Source: a virus (taxonomy: Duplodnaviria; Caudoviricetes). From it: a stretch of DNA of 41,986 nt. The stretch's first letter is position 1; each line of letters starts with the position of its first letter. Under the pieces are notes generated by a model, which saw only the letters and a list, made by a program, of their open reading frames with translations, was not told the DNA's origin and made no database searches. The stretch spans positions 1 to 41,986 of IMG/VR virus record IMGVR_UViG_3300025018_000048; one strand, given 5' to 3'. Below are positions 4,875 through 31,217 of the stretch, one piece after another. Made by a program: the position numbers and the translations under genes.

Positions 4875-5812
<938 letters not shown>

Positions 5813-5816
<4 letters not shown>

Positions 5817-7075: not shown

Positions 7076-7326
7076 AACCACCAGAGCCTATGCGCAAGAT
7101 CGGGCGCACGATTACCGCGATGACGGCCCAGCGCATGTGCATCGACAAGAAGCGGTTCGCCAGCAAGAACGAGGCTCGCGACTTCGCCATTCGCGGTCAG
7201 AAGCTTTACGGCAACGCATCGACCACTCCCTACAAGTGCCCGGTGTGCTTCAAGTGGCACCTGTCATCGCTCAATCACACCGAAGGCAACAAGGCCCGGC
7301 GCCGCGCGCTGTCCCACAAGCCATGA
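7072..7326 (+). CDS. Small basic putative Zn-binding protein
   Basis: C..KKRF...YKCPVCFKWHL. Confidence 0.65.
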   Translation: MKPPEPMRKIGRTITAMTAQRMCIDKKRFASKNEARDFAIRGQKLYGNASTTPYKCPVCFKWHLSSLNHTEGNKARRRALSHKP

Positions 7327-7574
7327 CCGCTGCGATCAACACCAAACCGCCCATCGGCATGCTGCGCTTCACGCCGCGGCCGATCGACGTTGAGTCCATC
7401 CCGATCGGTGCAGTGGTGCGAACCACATTGGGGCAACTGGCGCGTGTCACCGGGTACCGTGGCCGGCGGCGCCAACATCGCGAATACCTGGTGCTGCGCT
7501 ACTTGACGCCGCGCAACCGTGCCTTTGCCGTGGTGCTGTTGTTGCCCGAGCTGGTGGAGGTGGTCGATGGGTAG
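7323..7574 (+). CDS. Small hypothetical protein X, copy 1 (SH3/KOW-like beta pattern)
   Basis: Coupled ORF; 64 of 66 core residues are identical to 25568..25903. Confidence 0.8.
   Translation: MTAAINTKPPIGMLRFTPRPIDVESIPIGAVVRTTLGQLARVTGYRGRRRQHREYLVLRYLTPRNRAFAVVLLLPELVEVVDG
7368..7565 (+). repeat. 198-bp diverged direct repeat, copy 1
   Basis: Gapless alignment to 25646-25843, with mostly synonymous differences. Confidence 0.92.
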
Positions 7575-8079
7575 GCCGAGCAGCTACACCGATGCCGTTG
7601 CCATGCGCATTTGCACGCGGCTGGCCAACGGCGAGAGTCTGCGCACGATATGCCTGGATGCGGACATGCCGGACCGAGGGACGGTGATCTATTGGCTGGC
7701 GCAAGAATGCAACGCCGAATTCGCCCGCCAGTACGCGCGCGCGCGGGAGGCGCAGGCCGACCACTATGCCGACGAGATCATCGAGATCAGCAACACGCCG
7801 GTGATCGGCAAGAAGACCAAGAAGACGGGCAAGGTCACAGAGGTCACCACGGGCGACATGATCGAGCATCGCCGGCTGCAGGTCGATGCGCGCAAGTGGT
7901 ACGCCGAAAAGGTGGCACCCAAGAAATACGGCACGCGCGCAGCCCTGGAGCACACCGGCCGCGACGGCAAGGACCTGCCGGCGACCACGACAACGGTGCA
8001 GGCTGGTGTGCTGGTGGTGCCGGGGGTCATGCAGGATCCGGATGCCTGGACGAAACTCGTGAAGGACAATGGGCAATGA
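7567..8079 (+). CDS. terS: Terminase small subunit
   Basis: MGRPSSYT...ICTRLANGESLRTIC...FARQYARARE...RLQVDARKW...APKKYG. Confidence 0.92.
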   Translation: MGRPSSYTDAVAMRICTRLANGESLRTICLDADMPDRGTVIYWLAQECNAEFARQYARAREAQADHYADEIIEISNTPVIGKKTKKTGKVTEVTTGDMIEHRRLQVDARKWYAEKVAPKKYGTRAALEHTGRDGKDLPATTTTVQAGVLVVPGVMQDPDAWTKLVKDNGQ

Positions 8080-14190: not shown

Positions 14191-14264
14191 CCCCCTGGCG
14201 GCCCGAATCAACACCCGGGCCGCCGCTTCCTTGACCCCTGCTACACAGAAAGCGAGACCCAGCC

Positions 14265-14768: not shown

Positions 14769-14780
14769 GGACGGCTCGCC

Positions 14781-15596: not shown

Positions 15597-15600
15597 CGAC

Positions 15601-15948: not shown

Positions 15949-17417
15949 CGATCAAGTTCACAGTAGCGGTCGACGGATACGCGGTCGGCATGACTGCAAA
16001 CAAGGCTGCACCGATCGAGGCGGCATATGTGGCGCGTGGGGTTGCGGTGTATGGGGGAGACGGGTATCCGCCCGCATCGGTATTAGGTCCTGGCGGCAAT
16101 GCCACATCTCTGGTGGATGGGGCTGGGAAAATCATTGTTCAGGCGAAAGCGTCTGGCGACGGCTTCGACCCATTCGGCCAGAACATCAGCACTACGAACA
16201 TCACGACGCTGACACCGCAGTCTGGGAGCGTTGCCACTGTCACCAACGTAATGACAGCCGAGGGTCCAGGCGTGCGCGCAGTATCCGACACGGCGGACAA
16301 ATACATCGAGATGACGTTTGCCCTGCCGTATCCGATGCTGATCAAGAACCTGGGCATCATCGCGCAGGCGAACGGCGTCACGCAGGCGACGTTGGCGATC
16401 TACGCATCCACATCGTCATCGTTCCTGTCCGCATCGTCCATCAGCAAGGGAATCGCCGTCAACGCCGGTAGCGGCAAGAATGGCGCGCAAAGCCATGGCC
16501 TGCTGACCTTCACGCTTTGCGGGCAGTCGCCGTCGAACGTTTGGACGAACATCACGCCGGTGAGTCTTGACACAACCCTTTTCACTCACATCAGGGTGCG
16601 CATCACGCCGGCATCAGGGCAGATCGCCGACTTCACCGTCGTCAAGTGGATTGCCAATCCAGCGGCAAAGTCGCGCATCGCGCTGACGTTCGACGACGGC
16701 TTGATCGCTCAGTACACCCACGTTGCGCCGCTGCTGCAAGCGCGTGGGCTGCGGGCATCGTTCGCCGTCATCCCCGACCTGATCGGCTCTTCGTCGGCGT
16801 ACATGAACCTGTCTCAGTTGCGCGAATTGAAGGCCAACGGCCACGAGATCATCACGCACGGCCCCATCGGTGGCGCCGGATCGCTGATTGACAACTACGG
16901 GTCCATCTCTGCCATGGTCGCCGACGCCGTGGCCTGCCGAGATTCCCTGATCGCCAAAGGCTTGATCACCACCGAAAACGAACGGTCTGTGTATGTGTGG
17001 CCTCAAGGGAAATTCCAGTCGGCCAGCGGAAACACCGACTTGTTGGAGGCTATGAAGGCGGCCGGATTCACGACCGGGCGCAGTGTGACGCGCTACCTCG
17101 GCTACAGCCACGCAGCAGCGAAGGCAACGCGATACGGTGGTTTGATCGCTCCGATCTTTGGGCACATCCGCAGCGGCGTTTCTTCGGGCGATGAGGATAC
17201 CGTCATCACCAACTGCACCACGGCGATCACCTACGCGGTTTCGACCGGCCTGGATGCTGTCGGAATGTTCCACAACATCATCGCTGACCAGGGTGTATTT
17301 GCGGCCACCAGCAACAACGATATTGAGGTGTCGCGGTTCATCACGATCCTTGATGCCATCGTCACGCAAATTGCGACCGGCAAGGCGACGAACGAGCTGT
17401 TTTCGAGTTTCGCCTGA
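15945..17417 (+). CDS. Tailspike/virion appendage with C-terminal polysaccharide deacetylase (CE4/NodB-like) domain
   Basis: IALTFDDG, ASFAVIP, GHEIITH, YVWPQG, MFH motifs; lies in the structural block. Confidence 0.8.
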   Translation: MTIKFTVAVDGYAVGMTANKAAPIEAAYVARGVAVYGGDGYPPASVLGPGGNATSLVDGAGKIIVQAKASGDGFDPFGQNISTTNITTLTPQSGSVATVTNVMTAEGPGVRAVSDTADKYIEMTFALPYPMLIKNLGIIAQANGVTQATLAIYASTSSSFLSASSISKGIAVNAGSGKNGAQSHGLLTFTLCGQSPSNVWTNITPVSLDTTLFTHIRVRITPASGQIADFTVVKWIANPAAKSRIALTFDDGLIAQYTHVAPLLQARGLRASFAVIPDLIGSSSAYMNLSQLRELKANGHEIITHGPIGGAGSLIDNYGSISAMVADAVACRDSLIAKGLITTENERSVYVWPQGKFQSASGNTDLLEAMKAAGFTTGRSVTRYLGYSHAAAKATRYGGLIAPIFGHIRSGVSSGDEDTVITNCTTAITYAVSTGLDAVGMFHNIIADQGVFAATSNNDIEVSRFITILDAIVTQIATGKATNELFSSFA

Positions 17418-17446
17418 TTCCCATCCACTGCCGGTACACCTGACCC

Positions 17447-18154
17447 ATGACCGTCACCGTCACCCCCACCCAGACATACGCCGGCATGCTGCAGACGCTG
17501 CGCGTGCGCTGCGGCATTCACGCGACGGTGGGCAGTGCGCCGGCCCTGAACGACATCCTGACCGAGGCTCACGAGTTCGTTTACCAACAACTCGACGACG
17601 GGCTTCCGTTCACCTCAACCATCACCCTGGCACCCAATGTGGCGACATACCCGTGGGTGGCCGACGTGGACAGCGTACCGATTGCCCGGGGCAGTGTGCA
17701 AGCGGTTTGGATTGCGCAGGGCAGTCAAGAGCGTTTGCCGCTGTCCCAGGGCATCACGCACGCCATGCGCGCGCACAGCGATATGCGAGCGCCCCCGGAG
17801 TGGTACGACAGCAAGTTCGAAGGCGACCCGGCCGTGTTCACGCTCGAAGTGTGGCCGACGCCGGACCAGGCCTATCCGCTGTACGTCGACCACGAGCGGG
17901 TGCTGACCCGGTTCAGCGAGAGCGCCGACGTTCCCAGCGCGCCATACCGCCTGGTGCTGGCGTATGCGATCGCCATGGGCAAAGCTCACTACAGCAAACC
18001 CGATGCTGAGGTGTCGGGCCAGGCGTTCAAGACGATGCTGTCCAAGACGAAGTATGAGCAGCGCGAGAATCAACGGTACATCCCGCAATCGGATCGCGCA
18101 GCTGTGCCGCGGGTTGTGCAAACCGCTGGTGGTTTCCGGCAGGTCTGGAGCTGA
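17447..18154 (+). CDS. Head-tail adaptor (tail tubular protein A-like)
   Basis: 235 aa; LEVWPTPDQAY motif; position before the nozzle. Confidence 0.75.
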   Translation: MTVTVTPTQTYAGMLQTLRVRCGIHATVGSAPALNDILTEAHEFVYQQLDDGLPFTSTITLAPNVATYPWVADVDSVPIARGSVQAVWIAQGSQERLPLSQGITHAMRAHSDMRAPPEWYDSKFEGDPAVFTLEVWPTPDQAYPLYVDHERVLTRFSESADVPSAPYRLVLAYAIAMGKAHYSKPDAEVSGQAFKTMLSKTKYEQRENQRYIPQSDRAAVPRVVQTAGGFRQVWS

Positions 18155-18160
18155 CCCGCC

Positions 18161-19198
18161 ATGTCCAAGACCACGTTCGACAAGTTCGATGGCGGCCTGT
18201 TGCTGGCGCGCCCATCGAGCGTGGCGCCGGCCAATTCTCTGGCCAAGCTGATCAACATGGATGTGCAGCCCGGCGGCTGGCTGCGCTCGAGGGCCAAGTT
18301 CAAACAGGCGCCGGGATCGTTCATCCTGGGACCGCAGTGGAAGGGTCTGGAGTCGAACGCGGGATATTTGTGGACCTTCTCGTGCTGGAACGTGGCCAGC
18401 ACTGGTCTGGTCAGTGCAGTCGTGAACACCGAGACGAATGACCGGCTGGTCTACGCCTTCTATTCGAGCGGCACCGGTGGCAACTTCGCCGACGCCACAA
18501 CGGCCCGGCTGCTGGGCGTCACCCGCTGGAACAACGGCTTCTTGGCGGTGGTATCGCCCGACAATGGGACCACGAAATATGGCGTGCTGTTCAGTGTGAA
18601 CACAGGCACCCACACGGTTACGGGGGTGAACGTCGCCGATGTGAACATGCCCAAGTCTGGCCAGATGGTGACGGCCACCGGGCGCATCTTCGCAGTCTCG
18701 GACGATGGGCAGGCAGTTCGGTATTGCAAGGTCGGCGATCCGACCGACTGGACCGCAGCAAGCAATGCCGGGTTCCTGCCAGTCTCGCAGCACTTCGGCA
18801 GCGGGCAGCGGGTCTACGGCCTTGGCCTGTATCAGGGAAAGCTGGCCGTGTTCACCGATCAGTCGATTCAGCTGTGGATCATCGACCCAGACCCGACGGC
18901 GATGGCGCTGGACCGGGTTGTTGACGGTGTCGGCACGCGTCACCATGGATCCATCGTGAGCCTGTATGGTGATCTGCTTTTCCTCTCCGAGTCGGGCGTG
19001 CGTTCGCTCACGACGCTGAGCAACGCGTTGTTTCCGACTGATGTTGATGTGGGTTTGCCGATCAAGAAGTTCACGGCCTCGCCAGTGAACCTCACGCGTA
19101 CCGCCAATGGTGGATCGCAACCGGCTGTGATTGCCCTTGCAGCAGGACCGGTGTCCCAATACTGGCTTACCGCGCCTTCGCGCTGGGTGTCAGGATAG
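18161..19198 (+). CDS. Tail nozzle/tubular protein B, N-terminal part
   Basis: FDKFDGGL start; YCKVGDPTDW, GKLAVF, DLLFLSESGVRSL beta-propeller-like blades. Confidence 0.75.
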   Translation: MSKTTFDKFDGGLLLARPSSVAPANSLAKLINMDVQPGGWLRSRAKFKQAPGSFILGPQWKGLESNAGYLWTFSCWNVASTGLVSAVVNTETNDRLVYAFYSSGTGGNFADATTARLLGVTRWNNGFLAVVSPDNGTTKYGVLFSVNTGTHTVTGVNVADVNMPKSGQMVTATGRIFAVSDDGQAVRYCKVGDPTDWTAASNAGFLPVSQHFGSGQRVYGLGLYQGKLAVFTDQSIQLWIIDPDPTAMALDRVVDGVGTRHHGSIVSLYGDLLFLSESGVRSLTTLSNALFPTDVDVGLPIKKFTASPVNLTRTANGGSQPAVIALAAGPVSQYWLTAPSRWVSG

Positions 19199-19202
19199 CG
19201 GC

Positions 19203-19814
19203 ATGGCATTCGGTTCTGCAACCTTTTCGACCAGGCCATTTGCAGCCGGACAAATCCCGAACCGGCAGACCCTGCTGGCCGCGATCAACGGTGAATATGG
19301 GTGGACGGCTTGGACGTATTCCAAGACCGCCAAACTCAACGCCTGGGCATGGCACGGCCTCGGCGTCACTGGCACGGCCAACATCAACGCGTGGGCGCAG
19401 CTGGGCAATTCAATCTATCTGCGCAAGGATGGCGACTCGGCCGTCTATCTGATGATGCCCGACGTGTTCCTTCAGGCCGAGGACATCAACACCGAGAGCC
19501 TGGCGGTCTACGCTGAGACGCAATGGCTTGATTTCGACAAGCCCGGCGATTTGAAGGGTCTTACCGGCATCGACTTCGACGGCATGAACGTGACAACGCT
19601 CGAGGTTTATGTTTCCGAGAACGGCGGGCGCGATGGCGTGTTGGCCGAGACGCTAACGGTTGGATCTGCCGATGGTGGTTGGACCTACAGCGGCGGCATG
19701 CTGCCGCTGACGGCCGCCGGCACCGAGTTCAAGCTGCGTTTTGTCGGGAATCCAAACCTCGAGGTTCAGATCAACAGGATGACGATCTACTGGGACAACC
19801 TGGGCCAGGTGTAG
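19203..19814 (+). CDS. Tail nozzle/tubular protein B, C-terminal part as separate ORF
   Basis: TYSKTAKLNAWAW...ETQWLDFDKPGDLK...FKLRF resembles nozzle C-termini; ATG 4 nt after the upstream TAG. Confidence 0.65.
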   Translation: MAFGSATFSTRPFAAGQIPNRQTLLAAINGEYGWTAWTYSKTAKLNAWAWHGLGVTGTANINAWAQLGNSIYLRKDGDSAVYLMMPDVFLQAEDINTESLAVYAETQWLDFDKPGDLKGLTGIDFDGMNVTTLEVYVSENGGRDGVLAETLTVGSADGGWTYSGGMLPLTAAGTEFKLRFVGNPNLEVQINRMTIYWDNLGQV

Positions 19815-19817
19815 GCC

Positions 19818-20234
19818 ATGCGCGCTGTGTTCCTCAATTCCAGAGAGCTGATCGACCAGCACTGGTGGTCCGTGGCACATCTGCTCGATGGCCGGATCGA
19901 CCAGGTATCGGACGAATACACGCTGCAGGACCTGGCCGCTATGGTGGAAGCTGGCACCGCGTTTGCAGGCTTTGCGCTGGACGATGAAGGCGCGCCGGTG
20001 CTGGCCATGGTGTTTCGCTTCGTGCACTATCCGCGCGCGCAGACGGTGCACATCATGGCCATGGGCGGCAGTCATCTTGCCGAAGTCGCAGTCACTTTCT
20101 GGCGGCAGTTCACCCAATGGGCGAAAGAATCAGGCGCAACACGAATCGAAGCGTGTGCGCTGCCGGCGATGACGCGGGTGCTGCGCTCCCTTGGATTCGA
20201 GCACAGGTACAACCATTTGCGAATCGAGGTGTGA
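19818..20234 (+). CDS. GNAT-like protein of the podovirus tail/ejection block
   Basis: VHIMAMGG...WAKESGATRIEA...RVLRSLGF; typical position. Confidence 0.65.
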   Translation: MRAVFLNSRELIDQHWWSVAHLLDGRIDQVSDEYTLQDLAAMVEAGTAFAGFALDDEGAPVLAMVFRFVHYPRAQTVHIMAMGGSHLAEVAVTFWRQFTQWAKESGATRIEACALPAMTRVLRSLGFEHRYNHLRIEV

Positions 20235-20235
20235 C

Positions 20236-21084
20236 ATGGGCGGTGGCGGAGACGGCGGTGCGGCTGACCTGCGGGCAGAAGAGCAGGCGCGCCAGCGCAA
20301 GATTCAGATGGCCGTCGACGCGATCAACGGCAAGTTCGGCATCGCGCCGTCGAGCGCAACCGTTGGCGCGGCGCCCACGCGCGAGCAGTTCACTACGGCG
20401 GCCACTGGCGGCACGCCTGGTGGATATGTCGACGTCGGGCGCGAAGAACGTCGCTATGTGGCTCCGGTTGCGGCAACGGCAGGCGGGTTCGACCAGGCCG
20501 GGTTCGATGCGGCGATGAAGGCGTTCGAGGGCACCCAGAGCGATGTGACTGCCAACAAGGCCGCCCGGGATGCTCTGTACAAGGATGTCGGCAGTGCAAC
20601 GACTGACGTTGCGACGCGAGACCTCGATCGCCAGTTCACGACGGCCAGCAACCAGAATCTGTTTGGCCTGGCGCGCGCTGGTTTGTTGGGTGGTTCGGTT
20701 GACGCTGAATCAGGCGGCGACCTGCAAACGCGCTACGGCGAGGGCAAGATTCGGGCGGAGCAGGCCGGCATCGGGGCCGCATCCGATCTGCGCTCCGTCG
20801 ACGAGAAGACCCGCCAGAACCTGATCAGCTTGGCGCAGTCCGGCATCGACACCGGCACCGCGGCGAGCTTGGCTGCAGGGCAGTCAGAGGCCGCAGCATC
20901 GACCGCCAAGGCCAACACTGCCGGGGCGTCCGTCGGGCGGCTGTTCGATGACATGGGCCAGGCGTATCTGGCCAGCAAAGTCAACGCGGCACGCTTTCCC
21001 AATGGCGTGCCACAGTCCTCGAGTGGCAGCAGCTTCTTCGGCAACCTGTTCACCGGCAAGCGGTATACCGGAACGGCGGGGTAA
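20236..21084 (+). CDS. Internal virion (ejection) protein 1
   Basis: MGGGGDGG start, Ala/Gly/Gln-rich, FGLARAGLLGGS; GAGGTG RBS. Confidence 0.7.
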   Translation: MGGGGDGGAADLRAEEQARQRKIQMAVDAINGKFGIAPSSATVGAAPTREQFTTAATGGTPGGYVDVGREERRYVAPVAATAGGFDQAGFDAAMKAFEGTQSDVTANKAARDALYKDVGSATTDVATRDLDRQFTTASNQNLFGLARAGLLGGSVDAESGGDLQTRYGEGKIRAEQAGIGAASDLRSVDEKTRQNLISLAQSGIDTGTAASLAAGQSEAAASTAKANTAGASVGRLFDDMGQAYLASKVNAARFPNGVPQSSSGSSFFGNLFTGKRYTGTAG

Positions 21085-21090
21085 CACACC

Positions 21091-21753
21091 ATGGCATTTG
21101 ATCCGATCAGCATTGGGGCAATGCTCCTGAGCGCAGTCATCCAGCAAAAGACGCAGGCCGACGCGATCGCCAAGCAAAAGCGCATGGCGGTCGAGTCGCA
21201 GCAGCGCGCCCTGGCCAGTCAGAACCAGGCCACCGACGCGGCGATGAAGCGCGTGCAGGAGTTCGACCCGAACACCCGCAAACAAGCGCAGGATGCGATC
21301 ACGCAGGACCTGACGCAGCAGCTCGAGCAGGCGGGCACAGCCAGGCCGATCACGGCCCAAGGCGTCGAGGTTGGCGGCACCATCCCGGGCGGCACCAGCG
21401 ACTACCTGACGGCCAAGGCGAAAGAGACTGCCAAAGCGGCCGAGTCAAGCCGGCAGCTCGCGCAGCTATTCGGGCGCATCGGTGGCGCGCAGCAGCTGCG
21501 CCGCAACGAATCCGTGGCTTTTGGCGACACGGCTGGCGAGATCGGCCGCATCCAGACCGGTGCGAACAACGTGGCGAACATCGACCAGATCGGCATCGAC
21601 GCGGCTGGACAACCGAGCCTGGGCGGCATGCTGGTCAGTTCCGCGCTGGGTGCGTACGGCATGGGCCGGGCGAGCCTGCCGGGCGCGACCAAGATGAAGC
21701 CCGGGGCGCCCGGTGGCTTCGGTGGCGGTAGCTGGCTGGTTGGCCCGCAATAG
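21091..21753 (+). CDS. Internal virion (ejection) protein 2
   Basis: MAFDPISIGAML start, helical Ala/Gln-rich, Gly-rich hydrophobic C-terminus. Confidence 0.7.
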   Translation: MAFDPISIGAMLLSAVIQQKTQADAIAKQKRMAVESQQRALASQNQATDAAMKRVQEFDPNTRKQAQDAITQDLTQQLEQAGTARPITAQGVEVGGTIPGGTSDYLTAKAKETAKAAESSRQLAQLFGRIGGAQQLRRNESVAFGDTAGEIGRIQTGANNVANIDQIGIDAAGQPSLGGMLVSSALGAYGMGRASLPGATKMKPGAPGGFGGGSWLVGPQ

Positions 21754-21761
21754 GGGGACGC

Positions 21762-22976
21762 ATGCGGTTTCGAGTACCAAACACAGGCGGACAAGCGGCG
21801 GCAGACGGCATCGGGAATTTCTTCCGCTCGATGGCCATGGCGCCGATGTACGAAGCGCAGGCAGCAGAGGAAGCGCAGACGGCAGGAATGAAGCGCGACC
21901 TGCTGGGTGCGCAGACCGGGCAGGCGAACGCGAACATCAGCCGCATCCTGGCCGAGGCCGCCATCAAGGAGCAGGAGGCCAAGCAACTCTCCGGGCGTGG
22001 TGATGTGCTCAACCTGATGGGCGCAACCCGGGCGGGCATGTCCGTTCCCGAGTTCCAGGCAGGTATCAACGAGCGCAAGTTCGGTGCGCCAGAGGTCGGG
22101 CCTGCGGTTCTCCCGCAACCCATTGCGGGTGTCGGTCCCAGCGGCAGGACGGCGGCATTCGATGACGCCATCCTTACACTGTTTGGCCCGGCCATGGCAA
22201 CGCCTGCGGACAAAACGAACTGGGACCAGTTGGCCAATGCCCGCGGCGAGTACCGCAATCAGGCGCTGGGCGACTCCATCCTGTCCGGCCAGGTCGACGC
22301 CGGCCGGGCGGGTGCATCGCAGGCGGCGGTGGCTGGGAAGCCTCTTGTGAACAACATCGGCACCAGTGGCGCGGGCTTCAACCAGTTCACCGGTGAAGGT
22401 CAGTCCCTGAACCCTGGCATGGAGGTTCTGTTTCGGGACCAGGGCAAGGCGCTTGTGGGCCAGAGGCAGGCGGCGGCCGGCGCGTCCAACGCATCGGCTG
22501 GGGCCTCTCGCGCGCTGGCCGGGCTTCGCGGCGTGCAGACCAACAACGCGAAGGTCGAGGGCGGACTCACCGCACTGGACTACGAAGCGGCCAAGGCCGG
22601 GCAACCGCTGCCGAGCTCGAACAAGGGCACCAGCGGCTCGAGCGCGACCAATTCGAAGTTCCGCAACCAGATCATCATGGCCGCCATGCGCCGGCCAGAG
22701 TTCGCGGTGATGGACCCCGCCGAGAAGCAGGATTTCATCAACACCGAATTGATGGTGGCCGGCATGGAGCCGGTGGTACCCGGTGAACTGGCCGGCGTGT
22801 CCGGCAAGGGCAAGGTGGCCGCCAAGTCCGAGTCTGGCCCGATTGACGCGAACGCCGGCACCAAGAAACCGGCGATCGACATGGACGCGGCCAACAAGGT
22901 GAAGGCCGACTTCAAGGCGGGCAGGATCACACGCGAACAGGCGAAGGCGAAGCTCAAAGCACTCGGGATGGACTGA
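21762..22976 (+). CDS. Ejection protein 3, paralog A
   Basis: AADGIGNFFRSMAMAP.Y.AQAAEEAQ is shared with 25900..27441. Confidence 0.7.
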   Translation: MRFRVPNTGGQAAADGIGNFFRSMAMAPMYEAQAAEEAQTAGMKRDLLGAQTGQANANISRILAEAAIKEQEAKQLSGRGDVLNLMGATRAGMSVPEFQAGINERKFGAPEVGPAVLPQPIAGVGPSGRTAAFDDAILTLFGPAMATPADKTNWDQLANARGEYRNQALGDSILSGQVDAGRAGASQAAVAGKPLVNNIGTSGAGFNQFTGEGQSLNPGMEVLFRDQGKALVGQRQAAAGASNASAGASRALAGLRGVQTNNAKVEGGLTALDYEAAKAGQPLPSSNKGTSGSSATNSKFRNQIIMAAMRRPEFAVMDPAEKQDFINTELMVAGMEPVVPGELAGVSGKGKVAAKSESGPIDANAGTKKPAIDMDAANKVKADFKAGRITREQAKAKLKALGMD

Positions 22977-23380
22977 TGAAGGCCGACGACTTTCTGGCCG
23001 ACGTTCCGAGCGCCGACGACTTCCTGGGCGAGCCCGACGCGCGCCGGCCGCGCCGCGATCGGATCAGGAATCCATACGTCGCGCCGGACAACCCGGACAA
23101 CCCGATCCTGCCCACTGGCGGGAGCGTGCTGCAGGACGTGCAGATGGCGGCGCCGACCTTCGACGAGGACCGGCAGAACCGCGCCATCGTGAACCAGGCC
23201 ATCGAGGCGAACACACCGGCCCCCCGCGGCCCGCGCCCGGTGCGCGACATCAAGGCGATCGGCCAGGACCTGTATTCGATCCTGGGCAATACCGGCGTGC
23301 AGCTGGTCAAGCCGTTCGTGGACGTGCCCAACATCGTTCTTGGCGGCGCGCTGTCCAACTTGTCGGCGGCCTGCAAATGA
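22976..23380 (+). CDS. Probable truncated N-terminus of a large ejection protein
   Basis: ADDFL repeat at the start and low-complexity sequence; ends abruptly at the rep2 start. Confidence 0.5.
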   Translation: MKADDFLADVPSADDFLGEPDARRPRRDRIRNPYVAPDNPDNPILPTGGSVLQDVQMAAPTFDEDRQNRAIVNQAIEANTPAPRGPRPVRDIKAIGQDLYSILGNTGVQLVKPFVDVPNIVLGGALSNLSAACK

Positions 23381-24135
23381 GCGTGCGTACCATGGCCAGG
23401 GTCTGGGCGGACTCGAAGCACTCAGGCACCGAACTGCTGATGTTGCTGGCGATCGCAGATTTTGCTGACGACGACGGCCGCGCCTATCCCGCGGTTACGA
23501 CCTTGGCCGAGAAATGCCGCATGAAGCCGCGAAATGCGAACTACGTCTTGGCAGCGTTGAAGGCCAGCGGCGAGCTTGAAATACTGGTCAACGAAGGGCC
23601 CAAGGGCACGAACCTCTACCGGGTGATGCTGGATCGTTTGGGGCTGCAAGCCGTTGCACCCCTGCAAAGCCTTGCACCCCTGCAACACATTGCGCCCACC
23701 CCTGCAAAGGATTGCGCGAAACCCCTGCAACGCATTGCAGACGAACCATCATTGAACCATCAAGAACCACCAGATACGTCGACAGCCAAGCTGCCGACAT
23801 GTCCGCACCGTGCAATCGTTGACCTGTACCACGAGCTCTTGCCAATGCTACCGAGCGTTCGAATGATGCCGAAGGCCCGCAAGAACGCTATGTCTTCGAC
23901 CTGGGCTTGGGTCTTGACCGACAAGCGAATGGACGGTTCCGCACGCGCGACCAACGCTGACGAGGCGCTTGAATGGTTCCGGGCCTACTTCACCCGTGCC
24001 AGAGACAACGACTTTCTGATGGGCCGTGTCGCTCGATCGGCCGGCCACAAGAATTGGCGGTGCGACCTGGACTTCCTGCTGTCGGACAAGGGCAAGAAAC
24101 ACGTCATCGAAAAAACTGAGGAAGCATTGGCATGA
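23377..24135 (+). CDS. Replication initiator 2 (N-terminal winged HTH)
   Basis: LLMLLAIADFADDDGRAYPAVTTLAEKC HTH, internal iterons, C-terminal CPH...W...YF...WRCDLDF domain like rep1; coupled to DnaB. Confidence 0.85.
   Translation: MSVRTMARVWADSKHSGTELLMLLAIADFADDDGRAYPAVTTLAEKCRMKPRNANYVLAALKASGELEILVNEGPKGTNLYRVMLDRLGLQAVAPLQSLAPLQHIAPTPAKDCAKPLQRIADEPSLNHQEPPDTSTAKLPTCPHRAIVDLYHELLPMLPSVRMMPKARKNAMSSTWAWVLTDKRMDGSARATNADEALEWFRAYFTRARDNDFLMGRVARSAGHKNWRCDLDFLLSDKGKKHVIEKTEEALA
23645..23739. repeat. Five iteron-like palindromes TGCAA-N4-TTGC(A/G), putative second origin
   Basis: Starts at 23645, 23663, 23681, 23703, 23726; the last four are preceded by CCCC. Confidence 0.8.
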
Positions 24136-25571
24136 ACGCTCGCGCCGAATTCTCACCTGGTATCGATCGGGTCATGGACGATGCGCCGGTCAGCGCGCTG
24201 CGGATCCCGCCGAACTCCGCCGAGGCGGAATCGAGCGTGCTTGGCGGGTTGCTGCTGAACCCCGGTGCCTGGGATCGCGTTGCCGACCTGCTGACCGACG
24301 CCGATTTCTACCGCTACGAGCACCGGCTGATCTACGGTGCGCTCGCTGTGCTGGCTGCGGCGAACCGGGCTGCCGACGTCGTGACGGTGTTCGAATACCT
24401 CAAGGACCGCGGCAAGGACGACGAGGCCGGCGGGCTGATGTACCTGAACTCGCTGGCGCAGTACGTGCCGAGCTCGGCCAACTTGCGTCGCTATGCCGAG
24501 ATCGTTCGGGAGAAGGCGGTATTGCGCCGACTGGTGGTGGCAAGCGACGAGATCGCAACGGCCGCTTTCAACACCGGCGGCAAGCCGGTGGCCGAGATTG
24601 TCGACGAGTGCGAGCAGCGTATCTTCGGGATCGGCCAGGCCGCGCAGCGCGCCAGGGATGACTGGGTCGAGAGTAGCGACAGCATGGTCGCGCTGCTGGA
24701 TCGGATCCAGTCGGCCGCCGATGACGATCAGGACGACCTCATGCCAACAGGCCTGCACGAGGTCGACAAGTTGCTCAACGGGGGGCTTCGGCCCGGCCAA
24801 CTGGTGGTGATCGGTGCGCGCCCGAGCATGGGAAAAACTGCGCTGGCCATGTCGATCGGCATGCACATGGCGTTGAGCGAAGGCCTTGCAGTTGCGATGT
24901 TCAGCATGGAGATGACAGAGCGGGAGCTGGCCGAACGGCAAATGTCCATGGTGTCGCACATCCACCTGACGCGGGTGCAGCGGCCAAAGTACCTCAAGGA
25001 CTACGACTGGCCCCGGGTTACCGAGGCTGTCGAGAAAATCCGCCAGATCAGTTTCTCCGTGACCGATACGTCTGGCCTGAACATCACGCAACTGCGCAGC
25101 CGGGCTCGGTCGATCGCGCGCAAGAACGCGGTCAAGTTGCTGATCGTGGACTACCTGGGGTTGATGAACGGGTCGGACCCGAAGATGCCTCGCGTGTACC
25201 AGCTCGAGGAAGTGACCAAGGGCCTGAAAGCGCTGGCCAAGGAGTTGGGATGCGCGGTGATGCTGCTGTGCCAGGTCAAGCGACTGGAGGACCGCATCAA
25301 CCAGATGCCGACCATGGCGGACTTGCGTGATAGCGGCTCGATCGAACAGGACGCAGACATCATCGTTTTCGTGCATCGCCCGTACAAGGCCAAGCCAACG
25401 CTGGGCGACGAGTGGAAGTACCTGGCCGAGTTGCGCGTAGACAAGAACCGCAACGGGACCACCGGTGACGCGCAGGTGATGTACGTGGGCGAGAACACGC
25501 GGTTCAAGGACTGGCCGGCTGGCCAGGCCAGGCCCACGAGCCAAGTGCGTACGAAAGGGGCGGTCCTGTGA
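24132..25571 (+). CDS. dnaB: Replicative DNA helicase DnaB
   Basis: PPNSAEAESSVLGGLL, GARPSMGKT, FSMEM, IVDYL, DLRDSGSIEQDAD, KNRNG. Confidence 0.95.
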   Translation: MNARAEFSPGIDRVMDDAPVSALRIPPNSAEAESSVLGGLLLNPGAWDRVADLLTDADFYRYEHRLIYGALAVLAAANRAADVVTVFEYLKDRGKDDEAGGLMYLNSLAQYVPSSANLRRYAEIVREKAVLRRLVVASDEIATAAFNTGGKPVAEIVDECEQRIFGIGQAAQRARDDWVESSDSMVALLDRIQSAADDDQDDLMPTGLHEVDKLLNGGLRPGQLVVIGARPSMGKTALAMSIGMHMALSEGLAVAMFSMEMTERELAERQMSMVSHIHLTRVQRPKYLKDYDWPRVTEAVEKIRQISFSVTDTSGLNITQLRSRARSIARKNAVKLLIVDYLGLMNGSDPKMPRVYQLEEVTKGLKALAKELGCAVMLLCQVKRLEDRINQMPTMADLRDSGSIEQDADIIVFVHRPYKAKPTLGDEWKYLAELRVDKNRNGTTGDAQVMYVGENTRFKDWPAGQARPTSQVRTKGAVL

Positions 25572-25903
25572 TCGATGAGCCAGTGACCGCTATTGCGACC
25601 GATGGCACCAACATCGAGGACAAGTTGTACGGCGGTTTACTCGAGTTCACGCCGCGCCCGATCGATGTCGAGTCCATCCCGATCGGTGCGGTTGTACGCA
25701 CACCGCTGGGGCAGCTGGCACGTGTCACCGGGTACCGTGGCCGGCGGCGCCAGCATCGAGAATATCTCGTGCTGCGCTACCTGACGCCGCGCAACCGTGA
25801 GTTCGCTGTGGTGTTGTTGCTGCCCGAACTGGTCGAGGTGGTTCGTTCGAACAACGAAGTTTGCAACCCCAAAGAAGGTGATTCAAGGAGTCAAGAGCCA
25901 TGA
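25568..25903 (+). CDS. Small hypothetical protein X, copy 2
   Basis: Core nearly identical to 7323..7574, with different termini; coupled to dnaB and to the ejection paralog. Confidence 0.75.
   Translation: MIDEPVTAIATDGTNIEDKLYGGLLEFTPRPIDVESIPIGAVVRTPLGQLARVTGYRGRRRQHREYLVLRYLTPRNREFAVVLLLPELVEVVRSNNEVCNPKEGDSRSQEP
25646..25843 (+). repeat. 198-bp diverged direct repeat, copy 2
   Basis: Aligns with 7368-7565; the longest identical run is about 32 bp (cgtgtcaccgggtaccgtggccggcggcgcca). Confidence 0.92.
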
Positions 25904-27441
25904 GATTCAAGCTACCAGTGAGCCATGTTGGTGCGCAGCAGGCGGCCGACGGCATCGGAAACTTCTTCCGGTCCATGGCAATGGCGCCGCTGTACCAGGC
26001 GCAGGCGGCCGAGGAGGCGCAAGGGGCGCAGGCCAAGCGCGACCTGATCGGTGCGCAGCAGCGTCAGGCCGAGGCCCATGCCGCGCTGTTCCAGGGCCAG
26101 GCCGAAAGCGAGCGGCAGCAGCAGCAACGCGGCAGCCTGGGCGAGCTGATCAAGACGGCCGCGATGATGCACGGCGTGGCACCCAGCCAAACGGCAGACT
26201 TTGCACAGTTCGCCCAGACAGGGCAGATGCCGGCGCAGTATCGGCCGCCAGCTGTCGACGGCGTCGGCCCGTTCCAGCCCGCCCCGAGGTTCTACCAAGA
26301 CGACACGGCGTCGAAGATCTGGAAATCGCTGGGGCTGACGAATCAGGCGCTCACGATCGGAGACAAGAGCGTCGAGAACATCGCCAAGGCGTCCGGTGTG
26401 TACCGCGATCAGGGCCTGGGCGATCAGGTGCTGGCCGGCCAGATCGACCCGGGCCGGGTGGCCGAGGCACAGGCGGCCATGGACGGCAAGGATCGATTCA
26501 AGAACATCGGCGACACCGGTCAAGGCTTCAATGTGTTCAGCGGTGCCGAGCAGGACCTGAGTCCCGGACTGGCCGTGCTTTTCGGGCGCAAGACAGATGC
26601 CGGGATCGGCGCGGATGATGCGCGCGCGCTTGCATCGCGGGCTGCGGCAGGTGCGTCCACAGCATCGGCAAGCAACAGCTACGCGGCAGCTGCGCAGCAC
26701 CGGGCATCGACCGACAAGATCCGGCAGGACATTGCCCAAGGCGGTCGAACCGGTCAATTGCAGGTTGTGCCAGCATTCGATGGCACGATCATGCTGGTCA
26801 ACAAGGCGACCGGTGAGGCGCGGCCTGCACTCGGACCGGGCGGCGTTCCGTTGCAAGGCAAGGGCCCGCCAATGAGGGCCTTGCCTTCGGCAGCGGCCAA
26901 GGGTCACCTGGACAACCTCACAAACCTGCGGCGTGCGGAGAACGCGCTGGCGCTCGTGCAGGGCAAGACCGTCGACGGGCAGGAGGGCGACCCCAATGCA
27001 ACCGGATGGAAGGGCTTTCTGCCGAACACCGCGCTGAACATCCTGGACGAATCGGGTGTGCCGACGCGTGCAGCGATCGCGGATCTCGGATCACTGGTGA
27101 TTCACGATCGATCGGGCGCCGCGGTTACGGCAGCAGAGTTTCCGCGATTGGCTCCGTTCATCCCTCGGGCGACCGATGATCCGGCGACGGTGCAGAAGAA
27201 GCTGCAGATGTTCGTGTCGAACTACCGGGCCGCCGTTGACGAGGCGAGCGAGTTCTACAGGGCATCCGGATACACCGTGCCGGAGCTTGGCAATCGCGCG
27301 CCGGCGGCCCAAACCGGCGGGGCTGGCACTGGCCAGATGGCTGCGCCGCCGTCCGGGCCAAGACCTGGCGCAATTCAGGACGGCTACCGCTTCAAGGGCG
27401 GCGACCCGTCGCAGGCCGTCAACTGGGAGCAGGTCAAATGA
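25900..27441 (+). CDS. Ejection protein 3, paralog B
   Basis: Two blocks homologous to 21762..22976; different C-terminus ending GYRFKGGDPSQAVNW. Confidence 0.72.
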   Translation: MRFKLPVSHVGAQQAADGIGNFFRSMAMAPLYQAQAAEEAQGAQAKRDLIGAQQRQAEAHAALFQGQAESERQQQQRGSLGELIKTAAMMHGVAPSQTADFAQFAQTGQMPAQYRPPAVDGVGPFQPAPRFYQDDTASKIWKSLGLTNQALTIGDKSVENIAKASGVYRDQGLGDQVLAGQIDPGRVAEAQAAMDGKDRFKNIGDTGQGFNVFSGAEQDLSPGLAVLFGRKTDAGIGADDARALASRAAAGASTASASNSYAAAAQHRASTDKIRQDIAQGGRTGQLQVVPAFDGTIMLVNKATGEARPALGPGGVPLQGKGPPMRALPSAAAKGHLDNLTNLRRAENALALVQGKTVDGQEGDPNATGWKGFLPNTALNILDESGVPTRAAIADLGSLVIHDRSGAAVTAAEFPRLAPFIPRATDDPATVQKKLQMFVSNYRAAVDEASEFYRASGYTVPELGNRAPAAQTGGAGTGQMAAPPSGPRPGAIQDGYRFKGGDPSQAVNWEQVK

Positions 27442-29021
27442 GCGGGCCATGGGAGAAATACCAAGGCGCACCGGCAGCGGCACCGGTTGCGCCCGTCGCG
27501 GGCCCGTGGGACCGGTATGCGGCGCCGGCAGCGGCTGTATCGGATCTGGATCCGACAGCGGGCATGTCGACGGTGGACCGCCTGCTGGCGGCGACTGGTA
27601 GCGGTCTCGCAAGTACTGGCCGAGCGATTGGCCTGGGTAGCGTGCTGGAGAACTTCGGCATGCCAGGTACCAAGGAAGAGGCCGACCGGCTCGATGCGCC
27701 ACTGGACGCGACAACTGCAGGCAAGGTCGGCAAGTTCATCGGAAAGGCGGCGCCGCTGGCGCTCGCGCCGGCAGCTGGCTCGCTCGCGTTGGCCGCTGGC
27801 GCCGGCGCAGGCCTGAGCGCGTTGACAACCGAGGGCGGCATTGTCGACAGGGCTGCAGCGGCCGCAGGCGGGGCCGCAGGCGGCGCAGCTGGCAAGGTGC
27901 TGGGCGATGCAGTCGGAGCGGGCGCAAAGGCCGTGGCGTCGCGATTTGCGGCCAGGGCCGCGGCGAAGAAGGCGGCCAACGCCGGCAAGGATGCTGCGCT
28001 GGTGGCGGCTCGCGGCGAAGGCTTCGTGGTGACGCCATCACAGGCCGACGCCGGCAGCCTCGTGTCGCGGGGCTTGGAGGCCCTTGGCGGCAAGATCAAG
28101 ACCCAGCAGGCGGCAAGCGTCGCGAATCAGTCGGTTACGAACAACCTGGCGCGTCGGGCCTTGGGGCTCGCCAGAGACACGCCGATCGACACAGCAACGC
28201 TTCAACAGCTGCGAAAGCAGGCGGGCACCGCCTATGACGCGCTGAAGAACACCGGGACGGTGCAGGCGGATCAGGTCTACCACAAGGCCCTCGACGGCAT
28301 CGTGGCGAAGTACCATGGCGCTTCGGCACAGTTCCCCGGGTTGGCAAAGCCACAGGTCCAGCAACTCGTCGACACGCTGCGACAGCCGCTGTTCAAGGCT
28401 GATGCGGCGGTCGACGCCATCCGCGTACTGCGCGGCAACGCGGACGACGCGTTTCGCGCAGGCGATGCTGCGCTGGGCAAAGCCAGCAGAGAAGCCGCCG
28501 AAGCCATGGAGGCGCAGCTCGAGCGCCATCTCGTGAACACTGCCCAGCCCGCCAGCGTCCTGAGCGAGTTCAGGGACGCGCGAAAGCTGATCGCCAAGAC
28601 CTACACCGTGGAGAAGTCGCTCAACGCTGCGACCGGTGACGTATCGGCGCAGAAGCTGGCCGGGCAACTGGCCAAGGGCAAGCCCCTGTCGGGCGAGTTG
28701 AAGAGCGCCGCCCAGTTTGGCCAGGCGTTTCCGAAGGCGGCCCAGTCCGGCGTCGACGTGCCGCCGTGGTCGGTGCTCGACATTGCGGCCGGCGGAGTTG
28801 GGGGCATGCACAACCCTGGAATTGCTGCGCTGTTCGCCGCCCGGCCGGTGGCTCGATCAGTGGTGCTCAATCCGACGGTGCAGCGCCTGATGGTCAACCC
28901 GAATCGTGAAGCCAGCGTGCTGTCGCGAGTGCCGGCCGCCACATTGGACAACCTGCCGGCGAAAAAGCTGTGGAAGGCCCTGGGTATCGAGGCGGGCGCC
29001 GAACTGGCCTCGGACCGTTAG
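27438..29021 (+). CDS. Ejection (DNA transfer) protein 4
   Basis: GPWEKY/GPWDRY repeated start, Ala/Gly-rich hydrophobic segments, helical C-half. Confidence 0.7.
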   Translation: MSGPWEKYQGAPAAAPVAPVAGPWDRYAAPAAAVSDLDPTAGMSTVDRLLAATGSGLASTGRAIGLGSVLENFGMPGTKEEADRLDAPLDATTAGKVGKFIGKAAPLALAPAAGSLALAAGAGAGLSALTTEGGIVDRAAAAAGGAAGGAAGKVLGDAVGAGAKAVASRFAARAAAKKAANAGKDAALVAARGEGFVVTPSQADAGSLVSRGLEALGGKIKTQQAASVANQSVTNNLARRALGLARDTPIDTATLQQLRKQAGTAYDALKNTGTVQADQVYHKALDGIVAKYHGASAQFPGLAKPQVQQLVDTLRQPLFKADAAVDAIRVLRGNADDAFRAGDAALGKASREAAEAMEAQLERHLVNTAQPASVLSEFRDARKLIAKTYTVEKSLNAATGDVSAQKLAGQLAKGKPLSGELKSAAQFGQAFPKAAQSGVDVPPWSVLDIAAGGVGGMHNPGIAALFAARPVARSVVLNPTVQRLMVNPNREASVLSRVPAATLDNLPAKKLWKALGIEAGAELASDR

Positions 29022-29257
29022 AGGTTGTGGATCACCAAGCCCAGGAACCCCATGGCGAACATGAAAACGAAGCCGAACACGAAGATGGCCCAATGGATCC
29101 ATGGTCTGCGGGTCAGGAGTTCACGATCGAGCAGCGTGCGCTTGAGCTTGCCATCCCGCATCCATCGCTTGATGGCCATCGTGAACGGGATCGACGCCAG
29201 CAGCATCACGAACAGCAGCAGCGGCTTGAATGCCTGAACGAGAAAGGCGCTTCCCAT
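29018..29257 (-). CDS. Two-TM small membrane protein, opposite strand (moron-like)
   Basis: LLLFVMLLASIPF and WAIFVFGFVFMFAMGFLGLVI; convergent with the ejection gene. Confidence 0.75.
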   Translation of the reverse strand: MGSAFLVQAFKPLLLFVMLLASIPFTMAIKRWMRDGKLKRTLLDRELLTRRPWIHWAIFVFGFVFMFAMGFLGLVIHNL

Positions 29258-29540
29258 GACGACAGTTTATCGAGCCACCGGCAAACCGCAAGACGGCGCG
29301 GACGCCGATCCAGAGACGAAGCCGGATGAGCGGCCCGCGCCACCGCGGGCGCCGCAATCGCCAGACGTGGTCGAGTTTCGCAAGAGGCTGGCAGTGGTCA
29401 AGGCGATTCGAAAGGGGCCGGCGATGTCGCTGACAACGAGCCTGAAGAAGGCCGGCCGGGACCTGCACGCAGAAGACAAGGCTGCCATCCTGGCAAACAC
29501 CCGGGACGCGCGCCGGCGCGTGGCAGCAGCGCAAGAGTGA
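29256..29540 (+). CDS. Hypothetical protein, possible fused remnant of large virion genes
   Basis: Internal RBS-like AAAGGGG and ATG at 29424 (MSLTTSLKKAGRDLHAEDKAAILA). Confidence 0.4.
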   Translation: MTTVYRATGKPQDGADADPETKPDERPAPPRAPQSPDVVEFRKRLAVVKAIRKGPAMSLTTSLKKAGRDLHAEDKAAILANTRDARRRVAAAQE

Positions 29541-29583
29541 TTTTTCGTCACGGCAGGTGGTTGACTGCTTGACCATACCGGGC

Positions 29584-30000
29584 ATGGCCAATTTTCTCTA
29601 TGCCGTGATCATCACCCTGCACCTTGCAGGTCCTGCTCTCGCACAAGAGCCTCACAAGAATCCACTGTCGTATTCGCTTCGAGAGTACGGAATGATCCTC
29701 GCGATCGCGATGCTTGGTGGCTTTGTGCGTTGGTACAACGCGGTTCGCCGCGGCGAGTCGGCGGCCTACGACTTGCGCATTCTGGTTGGCGAGCTGTTCA
29801 CATCGGCCTTCATCGGGATCCTGACATTCTGGGCTTGCGAGGCGATGAACGTGCAGCCGTTGATCACCGCTGCACTGGCGGGCATGGCGGGTCACGCTGG
29901 GGTTTCTGGATTGATGTGGGCCGAGAAGGTCATGAAGACGTTTTTCGAGCGCAGATACGGCGTCCACAACACCGATCGCTCGCCGCTGGACAAGCAATGA
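29584..30000 (+). CDS. Holin
   Basis: Several TM segments; AMLGGFVRW, GELFTSAFIG, ALAGMAGHAG; upstream of the endolysin. Confidence 0.85.
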   Translation: MANFLYAVIITLHLAGPALAQEPHKNPLSYSLREYGMILAIAMLGGFVRWYNAVRRGESAAYDLRILVGELFTSAFIGILTFWACEAMNVQPLITAALAGMAGHAGVSGLMWAEKVMKTFFERRYGVHNTDRSPLDKQ

Positions 30001-30188
30001 GCGCGTGGTGGTTGCTTCCCGTGGCGCTTGCTGTGTGGGCATGGCTCGCATGGCGCAATGCCCCCGAGGATCCGTTCGATCTCGAATACCCCGACAGCGC
30101 GCCGGCGCCCGAGTCCGATTTCGGGTGCCCGGATACCGAACCAACCAGCCCGGGTGCGCTGGATTCTGACCTGTCGAGGCTGCAATGA
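29997..30188 (+). CDS. Small membrane protein in the lysis cassette
   Basis: MSAWWLLPVALAVWAWLAW followed by an acidic tail; ATGA-coupled on both sides. Confidence 0.6.
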   Translation: MSAWWLLPVALAVWAWLAWRNAPEDPFDLEYPDSAPAPESDFGCPDTEPTSPGALDSDLSRLQ

Positions 30189-30568
30189 CATTCGCCCTCT
30201 CCACCAAATCCCTAGGCCGCCTGACCGGCGTGCACCCGCGCCTGCAGGCGGTCGTCAAACTGGCCATCCAGATGACCACGGTCGATTTCGCCGTGCTCGA
30301 AGGCGTGCGCACCATCGAGCGCCAGCGCGAGTTGTTCAAGGCAGGCGCCAGTACCACCATGCGCAGCCGCCACCTGTCCGGCCATGCTGTCGACCTGGGC
30401 GCCATCGTCGACGGCCAGGTGCGCTGGGACTGGCCGTTGTACCACCAGCTCGCCGTCGCCGTGAAATCGGCCGCGCAGCAGCTCGGCGTGCCGATCGAGT
30501 GGGGCGGTGACTGGGAGACATTCAAGGACGGCCCGCACTGGCAGTTGCCTTGGTCGGAATACCCATGA
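30185..30568 (+). CDS. Endolysin, peptidase M15 family
   Basis: EGVRTIERQ, SRHLSGHAVD, WGGDW...DGPHWQ. Confidence 0.92.
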   Translation: MTFALSTKSLGRLTGVHPRLQAVVKLAIQMTTVDFAVLEGVRTIERQRELFKAGASTTMRSRHLSGHAVDLGAIVDGQVRWDWPLYHQLAVAVKSAAQQLGVPIEWGGDWETFKDGPHWQLPWSEYP

Positions 30569-30918
30569 TCCCGTTTCCCCTCCTGCTGGCCTTGGGCGTC
30601 CTGCTAGTCAGCAACGCCGCCACCGGCTGGGCCTGGCTGCAGGCCCGCGATCGCGCCGCCACGCTCCAGGAGCAGTTGGTCAACACCGTCGACGTGGCGC
30701 GCGAATGCAGCCGCGGCGTAGAAGCCCTGCGCACCGAGGCCGACAAGCGCGCACGTGCAGCGCGGGCCGCCGTCGCCGCGGCCGAGAAACGCGCCGCCGC
30801 CGGCGACCAGCGGGCCGACCAGATCTTGGCCACGCCGCCGGCGGTGGTCGGCGACGACTGCGCCAGCGCTCAGGCCCAGGTCGACGACTGGCTCTCCACC
30901 CGCCAGGTCAAGCCATGA
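30565..30918 (+). CDS. Rz-like inner-membrane spanin
   Basis: N-terminal TM and Ala-rich coiled coil after the endolysin. Confidence 0.8.
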   Translation: MIPFPLLLALGVLLVSNAATGWAWLQARDRAATLQEQLVNTVDVARECSRGVEALRTEADKRARAARAAVAAAEKRAAAGDQRADQILATPPAVVGDDCASAQAQVDDWLSTRQVKP

Positions 30919-31217
30919 TGACAGTGCGCGTGCTGGCCATCGCGGCCCTGATCGTCGTGCTGGCCGTCCTGGTTGGCTGCAGCGCGGCGCCGGTCCGCCT
31001 GCAGCCTGTCCGGGTGCCGGTGCCCGTCCAATGCCAGGCGCACGTGCCTGCGCGGCCCGCCATGCCCACGGAAGCCCTGCGGCCAGGGGTTGGCCTCGAC
31101 CAGTTCGTGAAAGCCGCCCAGGCCGAGATTGAGCGGCGCGAGGGCTACGAGGATCGGCTGCGGGCGGCGCTGGCCGAGTGTGTGGTGCCTATCGAGGCCG
31201 TGACAGGTCCGAGCTGA
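30915..31217 (+). CDS. Rz1-like outer-membrane spanin lipoprotein
   Basis: Signal peptide with LVGC lipobox; Pro-rich VPVPVQC. Confidence 0.82.
   Translation: MMTVRVLAIAALIVVLAVLVGCSAAPVRLQPVRVPVPVQCQAHVPARPAMPTEALRPGVGLDQFVKAAQAEIERREGYEDRLRAALAECVVPIEAVTGPS

Follow-up and report, generated by a model that had tools for sequence, protein, structure and literature searches.

The foreign block and its junctions

The window analyzed here, a stretch of 41,986 nucleotides (positions 1 to 41,986 of IMG/VR record IMGVR_UViG_3300025018_000048), is a circular contig with a 127-nt end repeat and a unit length of 41,859 bp. It represents a temperate, short-tailed phage contained in aquifer metagenome runs, which carries repressor, Cro, rep1, RusA, terS, terL, portal, tail, lysis and integrase genes. 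Its late genes include a foreign block of 6.1 kb (23353-29495), slightly wider than the 23377..29257 given in a preliminary description of this DNA, with start/stop-coupled genes for an initiator (rep2, with five iterons), a helicase (dnaB), a small protein (X2), two predicted ejection proteins (ejB and ej4) and a reversed membrane protein, all lying where that description had placed them. The leading gene, rep2 (23377..24135, + strand), codes for an O-like initiator of the island (satellite) type with an HTH_36 domain (PHROG 5810/345), whose best full-length relatives are found in integrase-AlpA islands. It follows the plan of lambda O, with an N-terminal helix-turn-helix, internal direct repeats and an adjacent helicase gene. 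The five iteron-like repeats within it (23644..23730, + strand), which share a CTGCAA core, are a predicted origin; the best 9-mer of rep2 occurs in four copies in 120 nt, a count reached in none of 300 codon shuffles of the gene, and the iteron 12-mer, counted over the whole window with two mismatches allowed, is at chance level (8 versus a mean of 7.0). As had been noted earlier, rep2 is a second initiator besides the resident early one, rep1 (4875..5816, + strand). The rep2 iteron 12-mer recurs unchanged, possibly by chance, at 4851-4862, in a hairpin just ahead of the rep1 start codon.

The dnaB gene (24132..25571, + strand) is intact, with DnaB and DnaB_C domains and the Walker A/B and Arg-finger motifs. 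X2 (25568..25903, + strand) is the second copy of a small gene, belonging to a small family with 29 representatives, that precedes terS in this phage group; it is 94% identical at the amino acid level to the resident X1 (7323-7574, within the X1-terS segment at 7323..8079, + strand), with 197 nt matching at 87%. A guess by eye that gene X is a KOW/NusG-like domain found no support; it has no Pfam or PDB match. Next come ejB (25900..27441, + strand), a predicted P22 gp20-like ejection protein and paralog of the resident ejA (43% over aa 1-237), and ej4 (27438..29021, + strand), a predicted P22 gp16-like ejection protein. A small reversed membrane gene (29018..29257, - strand) travels with ej4, being present at the same place and on the same strand behind ej4 in L014 (45%) and L017. 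The block closes in o94 (29256..29540, + strand), an in-frame fusion of the start of a shrunken, giant-like gene of the donor with the last codons of a giant gene of the resident phage; the first half of o94 resembles the C-terminus of protein P0146. Counts of promoters and terminators in the block are at chance level, and no + strand terminator is present within it; since the block is coupled and free of such a terminator, late transcription is expected still to reach the lysis genes.

The assemblies uphold this arrangement. In run X1, possibly the source of the window, an 18,306-nt unitig at 89x (about 7445-25750) is followed by a second at 91x (25723-29495) and a third at 78.8x (from 29466); the gene X1/X2 repeat has an exact core that forms a two-copy node of 32 nt at 170x. 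Run X2 has contigs 22114-25750 and 28700-30215, which cross the left and right junctions with no differing letters, and a run X3 contig (25730-25895) spans the X2/ejB boundary. At least two sequencing runs cross each of these three junctions with no mismatch, and depth is flat across the block. The left junction, from helper to donor DNA (23352..23353), lies where identity to two relatives of the resident phage, the viral contig L010 and the prophage L040, comes to an end; it is spanned in runs X1 and X2 and in the viral contig L001, which starts at the same base as a run X2 contig and is not counted as independent. The right junction (29489..29495) is a 7-bp microhomology common to the donor (contig L041) and the helper (L040), and is the branch point of a 6.3x unitig in run X1.

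The replaced giant gene and the donor arm

Upstream of the block lies ejA (21762..22976, + strand), the resident gene in the slot of the predicted gp20-like ejection protein, which is 71-85% identical to the same-slot gene of L010, L011 and L012 and 64% to that of L040. It is followed by a 126-codon 5′ stub (22976..23352, + strand) of a giant gene, a predicted ejection gene of the resident phage; the stub is 88% identical to aa 1-126 of the L010 protein, 90% to the L040 protein and matches P0146 at 123/126 positions. The gene between ejA and the holin codes for 2,260 aa in L010 and 2,654 aa in L040, and the L010 protein features JAB and LPD38 domains, as is typical of large head-packaged polyvalent proteins. 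What is left of it in the window are the first 126 and the last ~17 codons, ending at the stop at 29540, with helper identity stopping at 23352 and restarting at 29489. The resident lysis genes (29557..31217, + strand), which sit directly behind the giant gene in relatives, come next. The distance from the giant gene start to the holin start is 6,581 nt in the window versus 7,981 nt in L040, and genome size has therefore been roughly kept (about 42-44 kb in the family). The giant gene is not obligatory in this phage family, because the last ejection gene of L011, L128 and L129 codes for only 630-833 aa, in two of them with a small reversed gene behind it, as in the window. A separate observation on these slots is a chimeric allele in L040 (10001-11221, P0006), with an ejB-like N-terminal half (83%) and an ejA-like C-terminal half, which shows exchange between ejA and ejB alleles.

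The donor side was recovered through o94, a search with which gave one longer relative, the 6,285-bp contig L041. This starts with window positions 29373-29495 and then diverges exactly where the 6.3x unitig branches in run X1, and the donor/helper fusion at 29489-29495 is in frame. L041 is wholly present in run X1 at 3.9-7.1x versus 79-91x for the window phage (hereafter the hybrid), which is ~13 times deeper; two short pieces of it are seen in run X2 at about 2.5x, and a single 366-bp piece in run X9 at 2.2x is not used as evidence, nor are small shares in soil, aquaculture and spring runs. The crossovers, the lost giant gene and, in the same run, the right half of the donor are all observed. 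L041 does not rejoin the window within 6.3 kb. It carries a degenerate giant-like open reading frame resembling aa 1150-1354 of the giant protein (37%), a lone small terminase gene (TerS; L041 987-1511, PHROG 4044) without a large terminase gene (TerL) in the following 4.7 kb, and beyond it a KTSC gene and small genes. A segment comprising a non-coding stretch and a small gene (L041 2870-3370) recurs in an island (L214), where it lies between a P4-type integrase and AlpA, and its small gene is also present at the end of island L104.

The donor TerS is 68% identical to those of the L040 prophage and of L053, and has a C-terminal tail in common with the window TerS. In complex models, this tail finds support as a partner of the window TerL, scoring 0.83 as against 0.00 for the best of three controls, with contacts agreeing to at least 55% between runs and a partner pLDDT (predicted local distance difference test) of 46-50. 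The mark used for such models is reached by 51 of 78 solved pairs and by 2 of 108 mismatched ones, but also by proteins closely related to a true partner; what the modeled result shows is accordingly a resemblance to the tail of the resident TerS and not binding.

The P22 gp7/gp20/gp16 ejection set and the giant polyvalent (LPD38) virion proteins are both known kinds of ejection or virion proteins. By language-model likeness (Atlas), ej4 falls with the PF26808 (P22 gp16) cluster at 0.96 over 178 features, and the nearest named cluster for ejB is PF16928 (gp20) at 0.93 with 151/256 features, which is only a lead. The ej4 protein is 52% identical to the "putative internal protein C" of phage PBR31, and genes of the ejB/ej4 type are located behind the tail genes in PBR31, ct7QV12, L014, L022 and L129. 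The structural models of both proteins are helical, with BFVD matches to uncharacterized phage proteins and weak rows named injection or DNA-transfer protein; Foldseek with ej4 against the PDB gave no match at E<=0.001, the VIA wide search returned generic helix bundles only (best Z 8.8), and the ejB and ej4 profiles matched nothing meaningful among PDB sequences. The pair resembles the P22 set in its slot behind the tail genes, its helical low-complexity proteins and its Atlas likeness; it differs in having no sequence or structure hit to the P22 proteins and in that here a gp20/gp16-like pair replaces a giant LPD38 protein.

Relatives of the block among islands and known satellites

Among 401 genomes of the family of G001 (a genome whose prophage is related to the window), 39 match rep2, and the best 17 of the 39 were examined, leaving out 22 weaker genomes and the loci L008 and L009. 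PHROG and Pfam scans covered selected island proteins, and the TerL and portal labels in L178, L182 and L183 and the integrase of L189 were read from called genes rather than from hidden Markov models. Of the 17 matches, 11 cover the N-terminus or the full length of rep2, and a full-length tyrosine integrase lies near 10 of them (that of the donor itself was not recovered); a called TerL or portal gene is present in 0/11 and a major capsid gene in 1/11. Repeats of tRNA attachment (att) sites bound four of the 11 (L104, 11.1 kb; L105, 10.4 kb; L106 and L107, 14.2 kb). As cargo, three carry ejection-type genes (L098, L104 and L107), five tape measures (L100-L103 and L106) and three neither. Regulators of the AlpA/MerR/Stl type are present in the rep2 relatives L098, L107 and L005, and not in the block or L041. 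The eight other rep2 matches in viral contigs include the integrase-rep-dnaB elements L004 (with a tape measure), L005 (two virion proteins plus an LPD38 protein), L006 (an LPD22 protein together with the internal-virion PHROGs 308 and 805) and L007 (a lone TerS). An early module with rep and dnaB is present in L053, a phage of the family.

The ejB profile has matches in 6 of 401 genomes of the order Burkholderiales, two of which are islands. One, L172, combines a tRNA-Leu, integrase, rep, dnaB, a 768-aa ejB-family gene (E 5e-15), a 684-aa gene whose start is ej4-like by eye and which misses the ej4 profile, and TerS; the other, L175, has integrase, an AlpA-like gene, primase, helicase, a 435-aa gene and a 561-aa ej4-family gene (E 8e-25). 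When the rep2-dnaB-X-ejection synteny raised in the preliminary description was searched for, its exact layout was found nowhere else, and related integrase-rep-dnaB-ejection islands such as L172 were. Several islands deserve mention in their own right: L107 (964-15141), at a tRNA-Ser, is a complete, att-bounded island that lacks head and tail genes and carries an ejection-like set of three genes (91, 506 and 1612 aa); in L101, L102, L103, L106, L004 and L100, a tape-measure gene is accompanied by hardly any other tail gene, and L101 has in addition a lone major capsid gene; and L098 (10604-12060) and L104 (10805-12184) carry a PAPS-reductase-like gene, joined in L104 by a methyltransferase, perhaps for DNA modification.

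Set against the phage-inducible chromosomal islands (PICIs), the donor has a replication module (rep2, iterons and DnaB), though not the usual primase-replicase, and a small terminase without a large one. PICIs are expected to have no other structural or lysis genes; the donor carries the predicted ejB and ej4, and EcCIMP1 departs in the same manner. Because of these ejection genes, and because integrase and AlpA were not recovered, we file the donor as PICI-like only. No capsid-morphogenesis gene was recognized in the 12.3 kb of donor DNA seen, from which the left arm is missing.

The closest parallel is EcCIMP1 (PMC11773190), a PICI of E. coli MP1 mobilized by the podophage Kapi1: it too is a satellite of a short-tailed temperate phage, with DNA-transfer-like genes that lie downstream of the replication gene and are similar to helper genes. 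It differs in having a primase and being a free island, and its three genes are packaging candidates, a role only proposed; here there is an O-like initiator with iterons and DnaB and a lone TerS after the ejection genes, which now occupy the position of the giant gene within a helper genome. PLE11 of Vibrio cholerae (PMC12987554) was found by experiment to supply its own tape measure in place of that of the helper, yielding chimeric tails; likewise, the proposed donor would supply its own DNA-delivery part, and rep2-type islands also carry tape measures. PLE11 differs in its myophage helper, in using a tape measure rather than ejection proteins and in belonging to an unrelated element family, and its Rta blocks the helper tape measure protein, a function for which a counterpart here is only proposed (see below). 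The rep2-type islands share with the Gram-negative PICIs of SatelliteFinder (PMC10085698) an integrase, AlpA, a replication module, TerS and a size of about 10-15 kb at tRNAs. Ejection genes are not among what the accessible text describes for the marine satellites (PMC9618062), Ando (PMC13587820) and Charybdis (10.1101/2025.08.03.668216). The donor class therefore has a precedent in EcCIMP1, the one published case found of a satellite with genes of the DNA-ejection kind; for a helper phage with the ejection pair and replicon of a satellite, with mapped junctions and the donor arm alongside, a literature search that was not exhaustive found no printed account.

Origin of the hybrid and observations on the resident genome

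We consider it likely that the hybrid arose by recombination between a helper phage and a PICI-like satellite and that it now depends on the P22 gp20/gp16-like ejB/ej4 pair of the satellite, with rep2 and dnaB as probable passengers. The donor would be an integrase-AlpA-rep-DnaB island whose own TerS docks on the helper TerL and which adds its own ejection proteins. Helper and satellite would have met in one cell and undergone two crossovers, one at the 7-bp microhomology, both keeping the fused frames open, so that about 6.4-7.6 kb of the giant gene was exchanged for 6.1 kb of satellite DNA and the 41,859-bp genome stayed packageable. The hybrid would have survived because it has ejB for the gp20 slot and ej4 for the gp16 slot. 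Its late transcript is predicted to run ej1-ej2-ejA-stub-rep2-dnaB-X2-ejB-ej4 and onward to the lysis genes, and its virions would contain ej1, ej2, ej4 and one or both of ejA and ejB; such a set is of the P22 gp7/gp20/gp16 type and resembles that of family members whose last ejection gene is short. Lying between the left crossover and ejB, rep2 and dnaB would simply have come along; both would be expressed late and could perhaps activate the iteron origin. This agrees with one part of the preliminary description, which had entertained a satellite-like replication and DNA-delivery cassette replacing the resident large ejection gene, a view supported by the loss of the giant gene, the L041 arm and the survey of rep2 islands. 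The depth of the hybrid relative to the donor arm and the lack of any intact giant-gene branch in run X1 fit a self-sufficient phage, although they are not proof of one.

Several points weigh against this origin. The left arm of the donor (integrase, AlpA and att) was not found: searching viral contigs with rep2 gave only L001, which has the hybrid junction, a search of viral contigs with the L041 TerS did not return it, and block and L041 DNA matched distant pieces only in 201 relatives of G001. A free satellite should produce a branch at the left junction, yet the run X1 unitig continues through it without a break, although low-depth short tips are dropped from contigs and this is not decisive. 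The hybrid is seen only in runs that are possibly of one campaign. The naming of the ejection genes is based on where they lie and on language-model likeness, with no direct PHROG, Pfam or PDB hit, and rep2 or dnaB is found in the flank of none of 44 ejB-family and none of 80 ej4-family viral loci (64 of the 80 with at least 5 kb upstream), which indicates that both families are mostly ordinary phage genes and that the exact block layout is so far found only here. The six rep2 matches confined to the C-terminus divide into three islands and three full prophages. Finally, the block DnaB clusters with two prophage DnaBs (52%, support 96/95) and not with those of islands; it is 51-52% identical to prophage and host DnaBs (51% to a host enzyme) versus 31-44% to island DnaBs.

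The capture of a satellite ejection pair may be part of a longer conflict, an extension that we regard as unlikely though worth stating. The satellite would disable the giant ejection protein of its helper (e.g., with the shrunken 368-codon giant-like protein as a decoy) and substitute ejB/ej4, which in short-tailed phages would correspond to the Rta and chimeric tails of PLE; the helper would have escaped by capturing the pair, dropping the target gene and cutting off the decoy, and would then have outgrown both parents. If so, this would be a counter-defense by capture of the virion parts of a parasite, with the donor still present in nature, set within a broad Burkholderiales satellite family with ejection sets or tape measures according to the helper type.

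Among other explanations, it is quite unlikely that the donor was no working satellite but a prophage of the same family that had decayed or been rearranged, which would make the hybrid an instance of ordinary phage mosaicism. X2, ejB, the shrunken giant-like frame and TerS all have helper-family homologs, and the grouping of DnaB with prophage enzymes, the early rep-dnaB module of L053 and the unseen donor integrase would all suit such a donor. However, the order of ejection genes, lone TerS and island genes is not what a simple deletion of the helper X-terS-terL region would leave, the full-length rep2 relatives are islands, and the 3′ module of L041 recurs in integrase-AlpA islands. The earlier proposal, in which the block would be what a related phage retained after losing all its genes from X up to the ejection genes, is rejected as the principal reading: in the donor, TerS lies downstream of the ejection genes without TerL, and the closest full-length relatives of rep2 are in islands.

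We regard it as decidedly unlikely that the 6x form is a longer precursor of the same genome (i.e., helper plus a larger insert) from which a subsequent deletion at the 7-bp microhomology produced the majority form, with the hybrid perhaps defective, replicating well from two origins and yielding particles that are non-infectious or helper-dependent. In favor of this, the run X1 graph has no left branch, and the depths to the left of the right-hand branch point (89 and 91x) compare with 78.8 plus 6.3x to its right. Such a genome would, however, exceed 48 kb in a family of smaller genomes, L041 does not return to window sequence over its length, no complementing form with an intact giant gene is seen in run X1, and short ejection genes do occur within the family. 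Either way, the block could still derive from a satellite.

Selection of the block as a late second origin raising DNA yield during packaging seems very improbable: rep2, its iterons and dnaB form an intact, coupled part of the late operon, and the hybrid is the majority form, but intactness is expected after a recent crossover, linkage to ejB/ej4 explains the presence of rep2-dnaB, and no other phage among 124 ejection-gene loci has this layout. A chimeric assembly, for which the 32-nt exact X1/X2 repeat and its two-copy graph node offer an opening, has practically no chance of being correct and misassembly at that repeat was rejected, all three junctions lying outside the node.

Under the favored capture of a satellite pair, a gp20/gp16-like pair standing in for a helper ejection protein of 2,300-2,600 aa amounts to a natural experiment, which suggests that ejection sets are swappable and that satellites are a possible source of virion genes for phages. 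The findings also point to a family of small Burkholderiales islands with an O-like rep, DnaB or DnaC, a lone TerS and ejection genes or a tape measure, which would tend to be missed by current satellite models or called decayed prophages. The presence of the L040 prophage, the closest relative found (93-95% DNA identity across the head-tail region), in a cultured Comamonadaceae isolate makes the idea of a hybrid testable.

Elsewhere in the genome, the att core ahead of the window integrase is the 3′ end of a tRNA-Val in G001, matching over 49 bp; this core gives no extra contig in run X1, unlike in runs X2-X4, and is not used as evidence of virions. A stub of another initiator (4576-4878) lies ahead of rep1, where the G001 prophage has an entire 292-aa gene, so that rep1 is itself a replacement. 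The window TerS (7567-8079) differs from that of the G001 prophage in its N-terminal part (43% aa), with the tail at 85% and the flanks at 98-99% DNA identity; the donor TerS shares 68% identity with the G001 type, and packaging specificity may have been swapped. In the tail region, a virion gene with a polysaccharide deacetylase domain (15945-17417) occupies a place taken by other genes in L040, and a Tad2-like anti-Thoeris gene (37408-37929; PF11195) is 94% conserved in the G001 prophage.

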